Source: a virus (Duplodnaviria; Caudoviricetes). Taken from it: 64,000 nt of DNA. The DNA is taken from the IMG/VR virus record IMGVR_UViG_3300045391_000852, positions 6,263 to 70,262 of that record; one strand, 5' to 3'. Under the pieces are notes generated by a model that had not been told where the DNA came from, made no database searches, and worked only from the letters and a program-made list of their open reading frames with translations. Position numbers and translations under genes: made by a program. Below are positions 5,521 through 56,696 of this stretch, piece after piece. Positions within the stretch are counted from its first letter, which is position 1. Each line of letters begins with the position of its first letter.

Positions 5521-7808
5521 GCGACAACGTGAAGCATCCGGAGGCATATCTTCGGTATCTGAACCGCATCGGTGCAACGGTGCTGAATTTCCGCAAGGCG
5601 ATGGTGAAGGAAACGCGCGGACCATACTACATTGAAAAGTCCATTGTGACGATCCACAAGGATGGCTCGATTAAGTGCACGAAGCCGGAGCACGCGCCGA
5701 CGAAAGAAGAGGCAGAGGAAATCGCCGCCGCGCTCGCTGAAATCTCTTTCCCTGTCTCGATCAACGCCACTGAGGCGAACGCCAAGGACTTGATCGCCCA
5801 ATTGATTAAAGATGGGCGCGGAAAGCCAGAAGACTTTTTCTTGTTGCGAACAAGGAAGGACGGCAACAAGATCAAAATGATCCAGCAGCGAGTGGACAAC
5901 AATGGGGCGAAATATTTTCAGCCCCATTCGCTTTGGTCAGATGGAAAATGGCGAGCACTGGAATGTGATGACAAGCTCCCATTTTGGAAGCCACGCGAAA
6001 AGCGCTCCGGCGTCGTGCGGATCATGGTCCATGAAGGCGCGAAGGCAGCAGCGCATTGCGATTGGCTCGTCAACGACCGCTCGCCAGAAGCGAAAGAGGC
6101 TCGCGCAAATCATCCTTGGTTCGAAGAGCTTGCGAACTATGAACACTGGGGCCTGATCGGTGGGGCTATGGCTCCGCATCGCGCGGACTATGGCGAGCTT
6201 AAGAAAGAAGGAGCCATTGAGGTTGTTTACGTCTGCGACAACGATTGGCCGGGAAGGACGGTGCTGAAAGAATTCTCGCGGTTCTATGAAGCCTCACTCA
6301 AGGGGATCATGTTCGATGAACGTTTCAAAGAGAGCTTCGACCTCGCGGACGAAATTCCAGAAGCCTTCTTTAAGGAGCTTCCAACCGGGCGGCGTTATCG
6401 CGGACCTCAGCTGCGTGAATTTGTGAAGCCAGCGACCACAGCGACCGAACTAGTGGCCGGAGAGGAAAAGGCCGGCAAGGATGGAAAGAAGAAGGCTGGC
6501 AAACCAATTGTGCAGCTGACGCGCTCGTTTCGTGAGGAATGGTATCACACCGTTTCGCCGGAGGTCTTCATTCATGCCGACGAACCTAACAAGCTCCTCA
6601 ATGCAGCAGAATTCAATTCGCTGGTCCGGCCCTTCTCAGCGGTTGACGATACCGCGCGGCTGGTCCGTGGTGATGCAGCCAATAAGATGTTCAAAATCCA
6701 TTATCTCCCCGGCGCTCCTTCGGGGATGTACGGCAACGCGCTCCATGGACAATTCTTCAATACCTACTTCCCGCCGAAGATAAAGCCATTGAAAGGTGAT
6801 GCATCACCCTTCCTCGATTTCATCGCGAAGCTGATCCCCTCCGAGAAGGACCGAAAAGAAGTTTTGCGTTGGTGCGCTACGCTCATCGCGCGACCTGAGA
6901 TCAAGATGCTTTATGGCCTTCTCATGATCTCAGAGGTTCAAGGCGTCGGGAAGACGACACTTGGGGAAAAGATTTTAGCCCCTCTGGTCGGAATTGAAAA
7001 TGTCTCGGCTCCGAGCGAGAGCGACATTGTCGAGAGCCAATTCAATTCTTGGATCGCTCACCGCCGTCTCGCTGTGGTGAATGAAATCTACGCTGGAGCG
7101 AGCGCAAAAGCCTACAACAAGCTGAAGAGTGTGATCACTGATCGTACAATCACAGTGAACAAGAAACACCAAGCCACTTATGAAATTGAGAACTGGGTGC
7201 ATGTCTTCGCTTGTTCAAATTCCACCCGCGCACTCCGACTCAGTGCTGATGATCGCCGGTGGCTTGTTCCGAAGGTCACTGAGGTGAAACAGGAGCTTGG
7301 TTATTGGGCGAAGCTGAACGACTGGATTGACAATGGTGGCCTTTCAATCATCTTCAATTGGGCGAAAGAGTTTGTGTTAGATAATCACTATGTCATGCCC
7401 GGCGAGACTGCGCCGCGAACGGACGCGAAGGATGAGATGGTGGATGAGGGAAAATCGTCCGGCCAGCTAATTGCCAAGGCGCTATTCCTCGGGATGAAGA
7501 ATATTGCGGCCGCTCGCAATGAGCGATATTTCATCACCGATATGCGCGTGATCGAAGTGATTAAAAACCGGCTCTATGACGGGAGGTCTTCTGACAAGCT
7601 GGAGAAGGCTTCGACCATTCGCGCGGTCGCGAAGGAGGTTGGGTTGCATATCGGAACCGCGAAGACACGGAAATACTCGGCTGGTGGCATGCTTGGCCGG
7701 ATTGTCTCGACCGGGCACGAAGGCTCTCTGTGTAATCCAGGGGAACTCATTGAGAAAGGCTATAAGGAATTTGATATCAATGTCTTAGATGAGATGGACC
7801 CGTTTTGA
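5517..7808 (+). CDS. primase-helicase (Toprim plus DUF5906/SF3-like NTPase)
   Basis: Toprim HEG and VCDND motifs; Walker A QGVGKTT; Walker B AVVNE. Confidence 0.85.
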   Translation: MSDNVKHPEAYLRYLNRIGATVLNFRKAMVKETRGPYYIEKSIVTIHKDGSIKCTKPEHAPTKEEAEEIAAALAEISFPVSINATEANAKDLIAQLIKDGRGKPEDFFLLRTRKDGNKIKMIQQRVDNNGAKYFQPHSLWSDGKWRALECDDKLPFWKPREKRSGVVRIMVHEGAKAAAHCDWLVNDRSPEAKEARANHPWFEELANYEHWGLIGGAMAPHRADYGELKKEGAIEVVYVCDNDWPGRTVLKEFSRFYEASLKGIMFDERFKESFDLADEIPEAFFKELPTGRRYRGPQLREFVKPATTATELVAGEEKAGKDGKKKAGKPIVQLTRSFREEWYHTVSPEVFIHADEPNKLLNAAEFNSLVRPFSAVDDTARLVRGDAANKMFKIHYLPGAPSGMYGNALHGQFFNTYFPPKIKPLKGDASPFLDFIAKLIPSEKDRKEVLRWCATLIARPEIKMLYGLLMISEVQGVGKTTLGEKILAPLVGIENVSAPSESDIVESQFNSWIAHRRLAVVNEIYAGASAKAYNKLKSVITDRTITVNKKHQATYEIENWVHVFACSNSTRALRLSADDRRWLVPKVTEVKQELGYWAKLNDWIDNGGLSIIFNWAKEFVLDNHYVMPGETAPRTDAKDEMVDEGKSSGQLIAKALFLGMKNIAAARNERYFITDMRVIEVIKNRLYDGRSSDKLEKASTIRAVAKEVGLHIGTAKTRKYSAGGMLGRIVSTGHEGSLCNPGELIEKGYKEFDINVLDEMDPF

Positions 7809-41394: not shown

Positions 41395-41454
41395 GGGTAG
41401 CGATAGCATTGCTGCTGTTGCTGCCCTCCTTGGGTGTTTCCTCCCCTTAAACTT

Positions 41455-41488
41455 AAAGCCCCGGCCTCACCGCTGGGGCTTTTCTTTT
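41455..41488. terminator. bidirectional rho-independent terminator
   Basis: AAAGCCCCGG-loop-CTGGGGCTTT TCTTTT where the two gene blocks converge. Confidence 0.75.
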
Positions 41489-41877
41489 GGCGCTCGCTCT
41501 GCTGCGTCCAGTTCGATCCAAGCTTGGCCGGCAATTCCTGTGGGATAGTTCTTCGCCACCAGCTTCTTGATCAACGCAATCTCCTCAGCTGTCAAGTTCG
41601 GGTGAGCCTCGTGCTGAATTCGGAGCGCGAGGAGCCATCGCTGCGTCTTGTCTTCGCCAGACAATGTCGGCTCATCCGCATAAACCCCCAGCAATGAATT
41701 CGTCACGACGCTCCGGAGCGTGATCGGGACTGGCTTGCCATCCTTGTCGTGGAATGGCGATCCATCGATTTGCAAGAGCGGCGTCAGCGTATTGATCTCA
41801 ACTGCCTGCGCAGGCAGAGAACAAATCGCAATGAATGCTGCGTTGATGATGAATAGCTCCAAGATGATTTTCTTCAT
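41467..41877 (-). CDS. hypothetical protein with signal-peptide-like N-terminus
   Basis: MKKIILELFIINAAFIAICSLPAQA-VE. Confidence 0.6.
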   Translation of the reverse strand: MKKIILELFIINAAFIAICSLPAQAVEINTLTPLLQIDGSPFHDKDGKPVPITLRSVVTNSLLGVYADEPTLSGEDKTQRWLLALRIQHEAHPNLTAEEIALIKKLVAKNYPTGIAGQAWIELDAAERAPKEKPQR

Positions 41878-52146: not shown

Positions 52147-52176
52147 TGTCTTCCCCTAATCCAAGGTTTTCTGATG

Positions 52177-52233
52177 GGCCTCATCAGCGAGCGTTCCACG
52201 CTCGGACGCCGGGGTTAACCCGGCGTTTCGGCC
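52177..52233 (-). ncRNA. hammerhead ribozyme type II (HH-D)
   Basis: GGCC-GAAA-CGCCGGG[UUAAC]CCCGGCG-UC / CGAGCG[UGGAA]CGCUCG-CUGAUGA-GGCC; complete core; predicted cleavage after 52205. Confidence 0.92.
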
Positions 52234-52451
52234 TGACGTTTTGCGTAAACCTGCAGAGCTTCAACAAAGGTCTTCTTCGCGTGAAGTATCGATCCCTCTG
52301 TTAGATTATCAATGCTTGCTGCATACTTACCGATGTTGCGACCAAGAATAATGGTCATTGCGATGCTGGCATCACCAACATCCATTTTCTTTTCCGAGAT
52401 AAATTTTTCAATCTCGGAAATGGCTTCAATAACTTTGACTGGCTCAGCCAT
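52215..52451 (-). CDS. hypothetical protein
   Basis: 78 aa; last codons and stop lie inside HH-D. Confidence 0.65.
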   Translation of the reverse strand: MAEPVKVIEAISEIEKFISEKKMDVGDASIAMTIILGRNIGKYAASIDNLTEGSILHAKKTFVEALQVYAKRQAETPG

Positions 52452-52463
52452 CTCTTCTCCTTT

Positions 52464-52922
52464 TCAGAACCAAACTTTATCAAGCATGAGGATCGCGCGA
52501 CCTCGAATGTCTGGATCGTTCGGACGCTTTCCCTCCATGGCGTCAGCCAGAGAGATGAGGAAAGCTTCCTTCAACATTTCACAGGTCGATTGTCCCGGCC
52601 TCTTCGGCATCTTATGGGCCTGTGATGCCGTCCAGTAGATCGCGGTGGCGATGACGTTTCGCGGGAGGTCTTTCAGCCTTCCGGTGTCGTCAACAAACAT
52701 GTCAGTCACGCCGGTCTTCGCGAGGAAGGAGTTGACATAGACATGCTCGAAATTGGCGCGACGAAAGAAAGGCACTTCAATCTTATCGACCAATTCAGGA
52801 TAATCCGGACGGCGTTGCCGGAATTCCATTTCTTTCAGGTCAGCGAAGACCTTTTCCCAATCTTCCGGCTTCGCGTCCGGTTCGATGCAGAGATACTTGG
52901 TGGTGAATTTTTTATCAGACAT
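52464..52922 (-). CDS. hypothetical protein
   Basis: Start MSDKKF. Confidence 0.65.
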   Translation of the reverse strand: MSDKKFTTKYLCIEPDAKPEDWEKVFADLKEMEFRQRRPDYPELVDKIEVPFFRRANFEHVYVNSFLAKTGVTDMFVDDTGRLKDLPRNVIATAIYWTASQAHKMPKRPGQSTCEMLKEAFLISLADAMEGKRPNDPDIRGRAILMLDKVWF

Positions 52923-52924
52923 TT

Positions 52925-53089
52925 TCACATTCCTAATGTTTCGAGGAGGAAGACGTGCCACTGGTTAGTAGTACCCCAGCGGATGCAAGCGGCAACTTGG
53001 TGTTGCGGAAAGCGCAAATCGCGATGGACTTTGAAAAAGCTCAAGTCGCGTTTCTCGTGAGACTGGATCAGATGAAATTGAGTTTCCAT
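52925..53089 (-). CDS. small hypothetical protein
   Basis: TGATG overlap; METQFHLIQSH. Confidence 0.45.
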   Translation of the reverse strand: METQFHLIQSHEKRDLSFFKVHRDLRFPQHQVAACIRWGTTNQWHVFLLETLGM

Positions 53090-53418
53090 CAATATGTCTC
53101 CTTCATCCATTTTTCGAAGGCTTCCATGATGCCGCCAACGAAAGTGAAACCATCATTGAGATTGACTGAGCCAGCAGCAAAGTCAGACCATTTCACGCTC
53201 CAATGAGGAGCAGGACCAATTGCCGGCCACCATTCGAGTTTGTCAAGATTTACATCAACTTCAAAATTGATGATCTGATTGCCATCTTTCATTTCCAGAT
53301 CAAAGAACCGATCTGGAAGGCCATGGTTGCCGTCCGTCTCGATGTAAGGCAAGACACAATCCAGCGTCCATTTCCCGGCAACATTCTTCCGAAAGATGAG
53401 ATGTTTCTTAGCCGTCAT
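53089..53418 (-). CDS. hypothetical protein
   Basis: 109 aa; ATGA overlap. Confidence 0.6.
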   Translation of the reverse strand: MTAKKHLIFRKNVAGKWTLDCVLPYIETDGNHGLPDRFFDLEMKDGNQIINFEVDVNLDKLEWWPAIGPAPHWSVKWSDFAAGSVNLNDGFTFVGGIMEAFEKWMKETY

Positions 53419-53609
53419 GCAACACTCCGGGTTGCAGCCTCGCGACCGCGCAGGACGTTCTCGTTGTAGGCATCGACCAAAGATGCTGGAGCACCGCGAA
53501 GGAACCAGTCAACACGAGATTTGAAACGATCCTTCTTGATCGCTGCGTCGAAGGCGTTGGGATCGATATGAGCCGAAGCGAGAGCTTCATTGAAGATGCG
53601 TTCAAACAT
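53415..53609 (-). CDS. small hypothetical protein
   Basis: MFERIFNEAL with GAGG RBS, downstream of HH-C. Confidence 0.6.
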   Translation of the reverse strand: MFERIFNEALASAHIDPNAFDAAIKKDRFKSRVDWFLRGAPASLVDAYNENVLRGREAATRSVA

Positions 53610-53637
53610 TTCCGTTTTCCTCTTCCAAGGTTCTGAT

Positions 53638-53695
53638 GATCTCATCAGGCCGCTCATCCAAGCGACGACCGGAGAAGCTTTCCCCGGTTTCGATC
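53638..53695 (-). ncRNA. hammerhead ribozyme type II (HH-C)
   Basis: GAUC-GAAA-CCGGGGAA[AGC]UUCUCCGG-UC / GUCGCU[UGGAUG]AGCGGC-CUGAUGA-GAUC; predicted cleavage after 53667. Confidence 0.92.
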
Positions 53696-53697
53696 TG

Positions 53698-53937
53698 TTA
53701 ACAAAAGCCAATCCACTCTCCGGCCTCGTTGCGTCCCATGTCGAGACGATCACACATGACCTTTTCGTGAGTGGATCGTTCATCCTCAAACTCATCACCG
53801 AAAATTTGCTGCATTTCTTCGCGATGCTGTTTGGCTTCAAATTCTCGATCATTGATGTCATCGATGATTTGATCATCGCTCATGCCTTTGGCACGAAGAT
53901 CATCGACCAGAGAGAGGATTGATTTGTTGATGGTCAT
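53698..53937 (-). CDS. small acidic protein
   Basis: MTINKS...; TAA directly before HH-C. Confidence 0.6.
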   Translation of the reverse strand: MTINKSILSLVDDLRAKGMSDDQIIDDINDREFEAKQHREEMQQIFGDEFEDERSTHEKVMCDRLDMGRNEAGEWIGFC

Positions 53938-53953
53938 AGTCAGTTTCCCCTTT

Positions 53954-54169
53954 TTAATTCGAGTTGTATGGAGAGATTGGAAGTGCATCAACAATATTGT
54001 AGAAACGGTTCATCTCATTCTCCAATTTATTGATTTGGCGCTGAATTTTTCCATATTGTTTATCGCCAACAATAAAGTTGTCTTGTTCTTTTTCCAAAGC
54101 GATGTGTTCACGCGTCAATTGACGCATATAGGTGCGAAGTTCAGATTGAAGCTTTTTGCTGCTGATCAT
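53954..54169 (-). CDS. small coiled-coil protein
   Basis: MISSKKLQSEL. Confidence 0.55.
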   Translation of the reverse strand: MISSKKLQSELRTYMRQLTREHIALEKEQDNFIVGDKQYGKIQRQINKLENEMNRFYNIVDALPISPYNSN

Positions 54170-54170
54170 C

Positions 54171-54239
54171 TCACTTGCCTCCATTGCGGAAGGTTTCAAG
54201 CTCGCGGCGGCGAAGATAGGCGATCAATTTTTTGCTCAT
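54171..54239 (-). CDS. 22-aa basic peptide
   Basis: MSKKLIAYLRRRELETFRNGGK with AAGGA RBS, downstream of HH-B. Confidence 0.45.
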   Translation of the reverse strand: MSKKLIAYLRRRELETFRNGGK

Positions 54240-54266
54240 GACATTTTCCTTGTCCAAGGTTCTGAT

Positions 54267-54326
54267 GATCTCATCAGGCCGCGTTCCACGCGACGACCGG
54301 GAAGCTCTCGCCTCCCGGTTTCGATC
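54267..54326 (-). ncRNA. hammerhead ribozyme type II (HH-B)
   Basis: GAUC-GAAA-CCGGGAGGC[GAGA]GCUUCCCGG-UC / GUCGCG[UGGAA]CGCGGC-CUGAUGA-GAUC; predicted cleavage after 54295. Confidence 0.92.
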
Positions 54327-54328
54327 TG

Positions 54329-54433
54329 TCAGCTGGCGAGATAGGCGATAAGGATTGAAAGGACCAATCCGAAAATCATCGGCCAATTTCGCCACTCGGC
54401 AATTTCATCTTCGGTACGAGGTTCATCACTCAT
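54329..54433 (-). CDS. 34-aa membrane peptide
   Basis: MSDEPRTEDEIAEWRNWPMIFGLVLSILIAYLAS; ATGA overlap upstream, TGA directly before HH-B. Confidence 0.55.
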   Translation of the reverse strand: MSDEPRTEDEIAEWRNWPMIFGLVLSILIAYLAS

Positions 54434-54603
54434 GATGAAATCATCCCAGTGGGATCGTACAAAATGAAGAGGCCAATAACCGCTTCAAAAGTTTCCAACA
54501 TGTGGAAGCCAATCGCATTCACCAACACGACAGCGAAGAGGCCAAGCCCACAGCAGTGCTTGTAGTGGGTGTGGTTCAGTTTGTGAGGGTCGGGAAGCTT
54601 CAT
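54430..54603 (-). CDS. small His-rich membrane protein
   Basis: MKLPDPHKLNHTHYKHCCG then hydrophobic segments; AAGGA RBS downstream of HH-A. Confidence 0.55.
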   Translation of the reverse strand: MKLPDPHKLNHTHYKHCCGLGLFAVVLVNAIGFHMLETFEAVIGLFILYDPTGMISS

Positions 54604-54633
54604 GGTCGTTTTCCTTTTCCAAGGGTTGCTGAT

Positions 54634-54689
54634 GATCTCATCAGGCGTCTCATTCCAAGACGCGACCGGCCACATGGCCGGTTTCGATC
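54634..54689 (-). ncRNA. hammerhead ribozyme type II (HH-A)
   Basis: GAUC-GAAA-CCGGCC[AUGU]GGCCGG-UC / GCGUCU[UGGAAUG]AGACGC-CUGAUGA-GAUC; predicted cleavage after 54664. Confidence 0.92.
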
Positions 54690-54940
54690 TGTGTTTGCAA
54701 AATTTGTCTCCGTGGATTTCTCATCACGGTGAAACGGACGACTTGCCCCGTTCTGTCGGAAACCTCGCGCCACCCGCTGCTTAACTCCATACCGAATTTC
54801 GGAGGCTCCCTGCGTCGGCCACGATGGGCACTTAGGAGCCGAGATTTTCGGCGGTCGAAAGGGAAACCTTGAAGGAGCTTCCCGGCGTTCTTGGGCGGCG
54901 CGAACCGCGTCAATGACCCTATTTAACTCCCAAAAACAAA

Positions 54941-54967
54941 GAAAGAAAAGAAAAAAGATGGGGTCAA
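54941..54967 (-). promoter_or_regulatory. repeated promoter-like motif heading the ribozyme operon
   Basis: TTGACC CCATCTTTTTT CTTTTCTTTC. Confidence 0.6.
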
Positions 54968-55004
54968 AGTCAGAAAAATTGATGCGTTTTCAAAGGAAAA
55001 GCCA

Positions 55005-56696
55005 TCATTCCTCAGAAATAATGGCCTGCCGGATTTCGTCCAGCGTCAAATCGGCCAAATCCTTCTTGTTTTTGAGATTGCGCAAAATCGACCGATCTAC
55101 CGACTTGGTGGCCACGAGGTCGAAATAAGTCACTGTTCCGAGCGTCCCAATTCGGTGGGTCCGTCCGTCCGCTTGCCATCGATCTACTGCATTGAAGCTG
55201 TTCGAAAAGAAGATAACCGTTTGGCAATGGCCTTGAAGATTGAGACCAACACCGCCAGAGCGCGGATTTGAAACGAAGCATCGCGCTTTCCCGGAAAGAA
55301 ATGCATCCCTAGCAGCACTGCGTTCATTGTCGTTGCCTTCATAAACAACAAACGTCTCTCCGGCCTTCTTCAAGGCTTCAGTGATGACAGCGCGATCCTC
55401 GATGAAGCGGCACCAAATAACAATTGGCCCGGTCGATAGATCAACAATGTCCATCATCGCTTCAACGCGCTCGCCTCCAAAACGATGCATCTCACCTTCG
55501 CCGGGGAGATGGCCGCAGACAATTTGATGAAGCCGGAGGAGGCCGACTGCAGCATTGACACCGTCCACAATCGTTCCATCATCCATCTCTGTGAGGAGCG
55601 TCTTTTTCATCTCATCATAATGCTTCCGCGTCGCATTGCTCATCTCATATTCACGCACAGAATAAATCTTCGGCGGAAGGTCAATGGCCTCTTCCTTCGT
55701 CAGCCGGAAAGAATGAGGTGCGATGAGTGAATAAAGCTCTTCTGTATTTTTCTGCGCCACAACAGTCCGTCCATCCTTTCCGGAAATGCAGTAACGGGCA
55801 CGGAAGGAGGAGAGATATTTGCAACCCAGAATGAGCGGTGACAAGAATTCAAACTGAGTGAAGAGGTCCATAACATTCTTCGCTTGCGGCGTTCCGGTTG
55901 CGATCCGGCGATATGTCGCCATTTCACCAAGCTCGTTCAGCGCTCGCGTCCGGTCAGAGGCTTGGTTCTTGAAGTCGTGACTTTCATCGATGAACAGTGC
56001 CACCTTCCCGCTGTGCGTCTTCATAAACGCTTTCGCGCTCGCGAGGCCATCCTTTGTCCGAATTGCATCTGTGTTCATTGCGAAGAATGTTAGTTTCTTT
56101 GCCGGCAGCTTCCAATCAGTGATCCTCTTTTTCTTCCAAACGATACCGCTCCAAGCAATACGCTTGTCCATGTGGCGCGGTATCTCTTCATCGATCCATT
56201 GCCGATGCACACCCTTCGGCGCGAGAACGAGCACGCCAGTGATCTTCCCCCGGAGGAAGAGGATGCCGGCAGTAACAATCATGATGAAGGTCTTTCCTAA
56301 ACCAACATCGAAAAGGAGAGCGTAATATTCCCTGAACCAAGACAACCGAATGCACTTATCTTGGTGATCATATGGCGTCTCGTTGAAATTGTAGTCCAGT
56401 GGTTCGTCCGGAGCGCTCGCATGCTGCGTCGGCATTGACTGAACCTTCTCCATCTCAGTCAACTGTCCAATGCGATCCTGAAATTCAATCGCATAATCAC
56501 TCTCTTGAAGAATACGAAGGTTGGATGGGGTGCCTTCAATCTTGACAGAATTCAGTCCGTCCCAGTTCTTTCGACCGGCGAGCGAATTGATCAAACGGAT
56601 GAATGGGAAAGGAAAAGGACCGAACAAAGTGCAACGATTTTCAGACCAGATTTCTGCCTTGATCACTTTCGCAATTCCTTCTTCTTTTCGTTGCAA
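55005..56696 (-). CDS. SNF2-family (SF2) helicase
   Basis: FDVGLGKT, FIDESH, TGTP, GGVGLNL, QADGRTHRIG. Confidence 0.9.
   Translation of the reverse strand: MQRKEEGIAKVIKAEIWSENRCTLFGPFPFPFIRLINSLAGRKNWDGLNSVKIEGTPSNLRILQESDYAIEFQDRIGQLTEMEKVQSMPTQHASAPDEPLDYNFNETPYDHQDKCIRLSWFREYYALLFDVGLGKTFIMIVTAGILFLRGKITGVLVLAPKGVHRQWIDEEIPRHMDKRIAWSGIVWKKKRITDWKLPAKKLTFFAMNTDAIRTKDGLASAKAFMKTHSGKVALFIDESHDFKNQASDRTRALNELGEMATYRRIATGTPQAKNVMDLFTQFEFLSPLILGCKYLSSFRARYCISGKDGRTVVAQKNTEELYSLIAPHSFRLTKEEAIDLPPKIYSVREYEMSNATRKHYDEMKKTLLTEMDDGTIVDGVNAAVGLLRLHQIVCGHLPGEGEMHRFGGERVEAMMDIVDLSTGPIVIWCRFIEDRAVITEALKKAGETFVVYEGNDNERSAARDAFLSGKARCFVSNPRSGGVGLNLQGHCQTVIFFSNSFNAVDRWQADGRTHRIGTLGTVTYFDLVATKSVDRSILRNLKNKKDLADLTLDEIRQAIISEE

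Follow-up and report, generated by a model that had tools for sequence, protein, structure and literature searches.

A 3' tail that pairs with the catalytic core in a phage array of type II hammerhead ribozymes and covaries with it across relatives

Type II hammerhead ribozymes of bacteria and phages share a common core (CUGANGA, GAAA and GUC) and a permuted topology in which stem II is the open stem (PMC3088659; RF02276), and they occur in arrays between small phage genes in polycistronic RNAs (PMC3088659). According to Perreault et al. (2011; PMC3088659), the nucleotides directly 3' of stem II form a pseudoknot of at least 4 base pairs (bp) with loop I in the majority of members. Self-cleavage of comparable prophage arrays has been seen in vitro and in vivo (PMC3088659; PMC8782182), and the role of the thousands of phage and prophage hammerheads is still described as unknown (PMC6155905; PMC6765202). 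Here we describe four type II hammerheads in a window of 64,000 nucleotides (nt) from a virus of the Caudoviricetes (positions 6,263 to 70,262 of IMGVR_UViG_3300045391_000852); the window covers most of the source record, a complete virus record of 70,262 bp with direct terminal repeats. The four share the core, the topology and the array setting of the described members. Unlike the described type II consensus, with its 2-bp stem II and its pseudoknot between the tail and loop I, they have a 4-bp stem II, a short loop I and a 3' tail that pairs with the catalytic core. What is new is this core-masking tail; type II hammerheads in a phage context were already known. No description of a conserved core-sequestering hairpin appeared in the literature searched, which included the type II study in D. 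vulgaris and left most subscription journals outside.

Competing folds reportedly sequester hammerhead core bases in the Avsunviroidae and in the alternative structure of satRPV, which is attributed to Song et al. 1999 (cited in PMC6765202). By analogy with these viroid and satellite-RNA hammerheads, a sequestered core would confine self-cleavage to a particular time or state. There the competitor is a global rod-like or branched fold of the replicating circular RNA, or the requirement for a double hammerhead; the phage competitor is a local hairpin of minimal size, 6 bp, to which a 5-nt tail in the messenger RNA (mRNA) of a DNA phage contributes one arm. The Bevilacqua laboratory reportedly described attenuator pairings next to the ribozyme of hepatitis delta virus (HDV), in which a flanking alternative helix slows co-transcriptional self-cleavage. 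These attenuators resemble the phage tails in that flanking sequence pairs with strands of the ribozyme, but they belong to a different ribozyme class and lie upstream, and we know of no family-wide covariation shown for them. Engineered hammerhead aptazymes and riboswitch expression platforms likewise use mutually exclusive helices with one arm common to the ON and OFF states; unlike these ligand-controlled or man-made devices, the phage hammerheads have no evident aptamer or ligand pocket.

Each of four small-gene intervals on the minus strand holds one complete hammerhead: A at 52177-52233, B at 53638-53695, C at 54267-54326 and D at 54634-54689, with cleavage predicted between 52205 and 52204, 53667 and 53666, 54295 and 54294, and 54664 and 54663, respectively. 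In all four, the 5' strand of stem II comes first, followed by GAAAC and the hairpin of stem III, then by GUC and the hairpin of stem I, and finally by CUGAUGA and the 3' strand of stem II. In D, for example, the two GAUC strands of stem II lie at 54686-54689 (5') and 54634-54637 (3'), and the core CUGAUGA at 54638-54644. The conserved core, with CUGAUGA, GAAAC and the GUC cleavage triplet at the expected places, is thus present in four of four copies, and so is the type II permutation, in which loops cap stems I and III and stem II is open; more than 600 structurally filtered homologues follow the same plan. Stem II is GGCC/GGCC in A and GAUC/GAUC in B, C and D, which are paralogues with a common stem II and common flanking motifs. 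Stems I and III differ among the copies through compensatory changes that keep the pairing. Loop I reads UGGAA in A and C, UGGAUG(A) in B and UGGAAUGA in D. By analogy with the related arrays, the four copies are putative self-cleaving RNAs that would leave 2',3'-cyclic phosphate and 5'-OH ends.

At gathering threshold, Rfam reports no hammerhead in the window. Copies A, C and D score 24.9, 25.1 and 23.8 bits against RF02276, under its gathering score of 37 and visible only with E-value reporting, while B gives only a weak match to RF00008 (type III). The RF02276 consensus specifies a stem II of 2 bp and pairing between the tail and loop I, features that these copies largely lack; the gathering score is a curated threshold and no structural defining feature.

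Immediately 3' of stem II, every copy carries (C)AUCAG, which can form a perfect 6-bp hairpin, CUGAUG/CAUCAG, with the catalytic core. The hairpins lie on the minus strand at 52171-52187 in A (CUGAUG-AGGCC-CAUCAG, with a 5-nt loop and the tail CAUCAG at 52171-52176) and at 53633-53648, 54262-54277 and 54629-54644 in B, C and D (CUGAUG-AGAU-CAUCAG, with a 4-nt loop). In the latter three the C of CAUCAG doubles as the last base of stem II, so that the tail proper is AUCAG (54629-54633 in D). The initial annotation had described all four copies in this form, as CUGAUG-A-(GAU or GGCC)-CAUCAG, and both a reading of the minus strand and a pattern search agree with it: CTGATGA-N3-4-CATCAG occurs at four loci on the minus strand against 0.01 expected from 100 shuffles. 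CAUCAG is invariant among the copies despite their diverged stems I and III, and it is kept where stem II has changed, as that annotation had also noticed, since copy A with its GGCC stem carries it with the 5-nt loop.

The hairpin ties up C3 to G8 of the core and either recruits the 3' strand of stem II or leaves it in the loop, and it is therefore mutually exclusive with the active fold, in line with the original claim. By itself it is worth -5.6 to -5.7 kcal/mol (-5.6 in A and -5.7 in D), and it is present in the ViennaRNA minimum free energy (MFE) fold of all four precursors; in D that fold contains five of the six pairs and the 6-bp version lies 0.1 kcal/mol higher. When the active fold is forced, with stem II formed and the core open, the alternative fold lies below it by 2.3 (A), 6.7 (B), 3.8 (C) and 3.5 kcal/mol (D); with shorter flanks the gap between the forced active fold and the MFE is 1.1, 5.0, 5.0 and 4.2 kcal/mol.

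The initial annotation had proposed covariation across homologues as a check on this pairing. We collected relatives from IMG/VR by pattern searches that left the relevant positions free, and passed every candidate through a structural filter blind to the tail. The result was a set of 628 distinct type II hammerheads with very diverse stems, nearly all of them between small phage genes. Covariation with the tail can show only at N7, because N7 is the sole variable base of the core; to our knowledge, it has no partner in the active hammerhead fold. The base opposite N7 in the predicted hairpin follows it closely. In the pooled set of tails xUCAG with x left free, ribozymes with C7 have G in 103 cases and A in one, and ribozymes with U7 have A in 103, G in 12 and U in two. 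With stem II fixed as GGCC and the tail free, the 98 U7 ribozymes have (C)AUCAG in 20 cases, (C)GUCAG in two and another tail in 76, and the 58 C7 ribozymes have (C)GUCAG in 25, (C)AUCAG in none and another tail in 33.

This pairing is further supported by an alignment of 117 sequences, in which 98.7% of the cells are paired, compared with 8-45% after a shift of the partner by 1 to 3 columns. At N7 the pair is C-G in 75 cells, U-A in 19, U·G in four and something else in one, and the G8 pair is G-C in 72, G·U in 20 and something else in seven. Since G·U pairs would be mismatches in DNA or on the other strand, the pairing takes place in RNA and on the ribozyme strand. The register is the same with a 4-nt and a 5-nt loop, which argues for a helix rather than a tertiary contact at a fixed position. 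Searches of all IMG/VR for the same pattern with A7 or G7 returned seven matches and no hammerhead, against more than 117 each for C7 and U7 among the matches listed, so the background amounts to a few matches per N7 letter.

A shorter, 5-bp register, CUGAU/AUCAG closed by the triloop GAG, could be drawn from tails that begin with AG after GAUC (40 of 71), and we do not count it as selected because AG also follows GGCC where no such helix is possible (26 of 98) and because the examples with C7 or A7 contain mismatches. Directly after stem II, the first base is itself usually A, in 66 of the 71 sequences of the GAUC set and 72 of the 98 of the GGCC set (loci L003-L359), whether or not the hairpin is present, and it may be a stacking or tertiary position at the open end of stem II.

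The N7 association holds when common descent is taken into account. Both N7 states stand side by side within single arrays that have the same stem II (L121, L175 and L198), and U·G intermediates are found at L209 and L225. On a tree of the ribozymes built with the N7 and partner columns masked, supported branches provide 12 independent pairs, of which about 9.8 show the partner changing in concert with N7 and none in opposition to it, and about 2.2 leave the partner unchanged (median p of the sign test 0.002). The same test on fewer sequences had given five pairs and p 0.06. A separate collection, from bacterial genomes of several phyla, contains 15 structurally valid hammerheads with C:G in seven, U:A in seven, U·G in one and C:A in none. 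Most pattern matches in bacterial genomes (Pantoea, Mesorhizobium and others) occur by chance and have no hammerhead structure; about 100 such chance matches, used as a control, are distributed 32, 28, 25 and 15 across the four combinations, with no association.

These results bear on an explanation that needs no function in RNA, in which CAUCAG has been kept by recent duplication or the inverted repeat is bound by a protein as DNA. It is true that B, C and D are paralogues with a common stem II and common flanks, and that an inverted repeat reads on both DNA strands. Stems I and III have nevertheless diverged between the copies while the tail has not; the same tail accompanies many different stem II sequences on hundreds of contigs and in several bacterial phyla; the four U7·G and 20 G8·U cells pair only as RNA on the ribozyme strand; and the phylogeny-aware test is positive. 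This explanation is largely refuted, and we regard it as very improbable. The comparative data instead indicate that the anti-core hairpin is real and kept by selection, and no accident of recent duplication. Each of the two mutually exclusive helices has comparative support of its own, stem II from its compensatory variants (GAUC/GGCC and many others) and the anti-core hairpin from the N7 covariation; C10.4 and the core are common to both.

A second alternative is that the tail makes a contact within the active fold, either as the pseudoknot partner of loop I or by base-pairing to the 5' flank so as to extend stem II; that it also matches the core would then be incidental. The partner of loop I in the pseudoknots of Perreault et al. 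(2011; PMC3088659) sits at exactly the position of the tail. Moreover, UCAUC or UCAU is a possible partner for loop I of B (UGGAUGA) and of D (UGGAAUGA), stem II of C can be lengthened by pairing of its 5' flank CUGAC with UCAG of the tail, and in some homologues of the pseudoknot class loop I (UUGACU or GUGAUG) pairs with the same tail (A/U-GUCAG). Among 198 hairpin-class ribozymes, however, the tail is no more complementary to loop I or to the 5' flank than in controls in which loops and flanks were permuted among ribozymes, so that neither the pseudoknot nor the extended stem II serves as a general explanation. Most loops I in this set have 3-5 nt and cannot pair with the tail, and the loop of A and C is UGGAA, which allows 3 bp with a wobble. 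The covariation of N7 with the tail, in helix register at two loop lengths, also argues against this alternative, which we consider quite improbable. The initial annotation had named a tertiary contact of the active fold as one finding that would overturn its proposal; such a contact is not borne out in general and could still apply to B and D. In these two copies (stem I at 53649-53666 and 54645-54663, respectively, minus strand) loop I repeats GAUGA or AUGA of the core and could pair with the tail in place of the core, as GAUGA:UCAUC in B and AUGA:UCAU in D.

A related arrangement is seen at locus L459, on a Bosea vestrisii contig (about 5919-6000, plus strand), where the tail GUCAGCUC pairs with a core-like 5' flank, GAGCUGAU, in a predicted 12-bp stem II that would speak for an active-fold contact. 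The structural filter did not pass L459 as a hammerhead; if it is one, its tail would compete between the long stem II and the core.

The preferred reading is that (C)AUCAG is the 3' arm of a selected anti-core hairpin with C3 to G8, and that these hammerheads are two-state RNAs which can cut when stem II is formed and the core open, and cannot when the hairpin is formed. We give this reading a probability of roughly 60%. It is consistent with the energies calculated for the relatives. In 65% of 311 tailless hammerheads the MFE structure coincides with the active secondary structure, and across the 311 the median gap is 0.0 kcal/mol, while among those with the tail the median gap between the active fold and the MFE is 2.3 kcal/mol for a 4-nt loop (n=127) and 1.8 kcal/mol for a 5-nt loop (n=17). 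A difference of about 2 kcal/mol would allow the two states to be similarly stable.

Several observations weigh against this reading. The hairpin is optional. Among ribozymes sampled regardless of the tail it is carried by only about 20% of those with U7 (22 of 98 with a GGCC stem and 12 of 60 unselected array neighbours) and about 43% of those with C7 (25 of 58), and it is absent from a natural variant, L175:7487-7541, in which GAAAGGG follows stem II directly in place of a GUCAG tail. The neighbour of this variant, L175:6105-6159, has the tail, the same stem II (GGAC/GUCC) and much of stem I in common with it, and the two form a natural pair with and without the tail. Tailed and tailless hammerheads show no clear difference in stem II length, GC content, position of the stop codon or distance to the next start codon, and the likeness in the last two points to no particular role for the tail. 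Hammerheads with A7:U or G7:C are missing from the IMG/VR sample. Nearest-neighbour energies omit the tertiary stabilization of the folded hammerhead core and so do not give the true balance between the folds. Finally, a hairpin based on the core could simply be the cheapest way, at 5 nt, to structure a leader.

If the two-state reading is correct, the order of transcription and the lifetimes of short helices suggest how the tail would act. Once stem II has been made, the polymerase needs only 5 nt more to supply the tail, and opening and closing of a 6-bp hairpin should be far faster than hammerhead cleavage. The two folds would then equilibrate before cleavage and the hairpin would lower the active fraction, as a built-in brake on how the polycistronic early mRNA is processed. 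Once the RNA has been cut, the two strands of the 4-bp stem II would separate, and the 3' product would settle into the hairpin as its resting fold. From its 5'-OH end, the downstream mRNA would then carry a flush stem I, the anti-core hairpin without a spacer and the ribosome-binding site; this refolding would make the cut irreversible and leave a fully structured 5' leader. For the function, the initial annotation had proposed either a post-cleavage refold that releases the product and prevents re-ligation or a kinetic or regulated off-state. Blocking of re-ligation seems the weakest and least necessary role, since the cleaved products are joined by no more than the 4-bp stem II, which would be expected to come apart in any case. 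The sequence data are compatible with both a brake or gate and a role in the 3' product.

Beyond the tail, a CCUUGGA..(A)AGG element follows 2-4 nt after CAUCAG in all four copies (52147-52170, 53611-53632, 54240-54261 and 54607-54628, minus strand). It is predicted to form a 4-bp mini-hairpin over part of the Shine-Dalgarno sequence, with three pairs in the MFE fold of copy A. Loop I of all four ribozymes contains UGGA as well, which gives two GGA motifs in hairpin loops per unit. At L484, ACCCUUGGGGG, which resembles the CCUUGGA..(A)AGG element, comes after the tail.

A stronger version of the brake makes it the purpose of the hairpin rather than a side effect, as a regulated off-state with a specific trigger. 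In its most concrete form the trigger would be translation: the 5' strand of stem II and GAAA would be covered by a ribosome that terminates on the upstream gene, the 3' half would collapse into the hairpin, and cutting would be confined to messages whose upstream gene is no longer translated, or would be delayed. In nearly all of about 455 tabulated hammerheads (loci L003-L430) the stop codon of the upstream gene ends -1 to +4 nt from stem II, which makes this version attractive, and the stop codon also lies close in B (UAA, 53696-53700, minus strand) and C (UGA, 54327-54332, minus strand), each time 2 nt 5' of stem II. The use of the catalytic bases themselves by the hairpin fits inhibition as a purpose, and the family-wide preference for the alternative fold, at only about 2 kcal/mol, is what is expected of a switch. 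The placement of the stop codon is alike with and without the tail, however, copy D keeps the hairpin without a nearby upstream stop codon, and no ligand- or protein-binding element is evident. We therefore hold a regulated off-state of this kind to be unlikely. In the tabulated homologues the stop is often UAG, with its G common to stem II.

A broader form of the two-state reading extends it to the family. Within one major class of phage type II hammerheads, roughly a fifth to nearly half would then be two-state devices and not constitutive cutters, with a 5-nt tail that gates cleavage, for example by time after transcription or by upstream translation. We offer this tentatively, as a possibility that we judge doubtful on balance.

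Genes run in the minus-strand direction throughout the 51.5-56.7 kb region around the array. A DNA helicase gene (55005-56696, minus strand) is followed at its 3' end by a terminator-like hairpin (55027-54999, minus strand) and then by a stretch of about 300 nt free of open reading frames (ORFs; 54700-55004) that precedes hammerhead D; small ORFs of no known function come after it. A search of PHROGs assigned no function to the small ORFs between the ribozymes, and a sigma-70 scan upstream of D found no convincing promoter. Because no stop codon lies close upstream of D, D may trim the 5' leader of a new transcript instead of separating two cistrons. A blastn comparison of the array with the 50,697 phage records of an INPHARED release gave no match and thus no annotated relative. 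Elsewhere in the window, positions 41416-41495 (plus strand) match RF00519, the suhB/mmgR small-RNA family, at full length with 61.5 bits against a gathering score of 41. RF00519 is an alphaproteobacterial family, and the match would hint at the host and at a regulatory small RNA borne by the phage.

A covarying helix that hides catalytic bases implies that selection acts on the timing or the extent of cleavage, or on the form of the product RNA, and not on the ability to cut alone. The tail provides a sequence signature that sorts phage hammerheads into masked and unmasked classes, and in vitro constructs trimmed at stem II would miss any control that it exerts. It may also serve as a minimal natural design for self-limiting ribozymes. 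If the broader reading is true, phages would use their ribozyme arrays to programme when, and how much of, each segment of an early polycistronic mRNA is released, and this would give the hammerheads of bacteria and phages, whose function is still open in reviews, a concrete and testable regulatory role.

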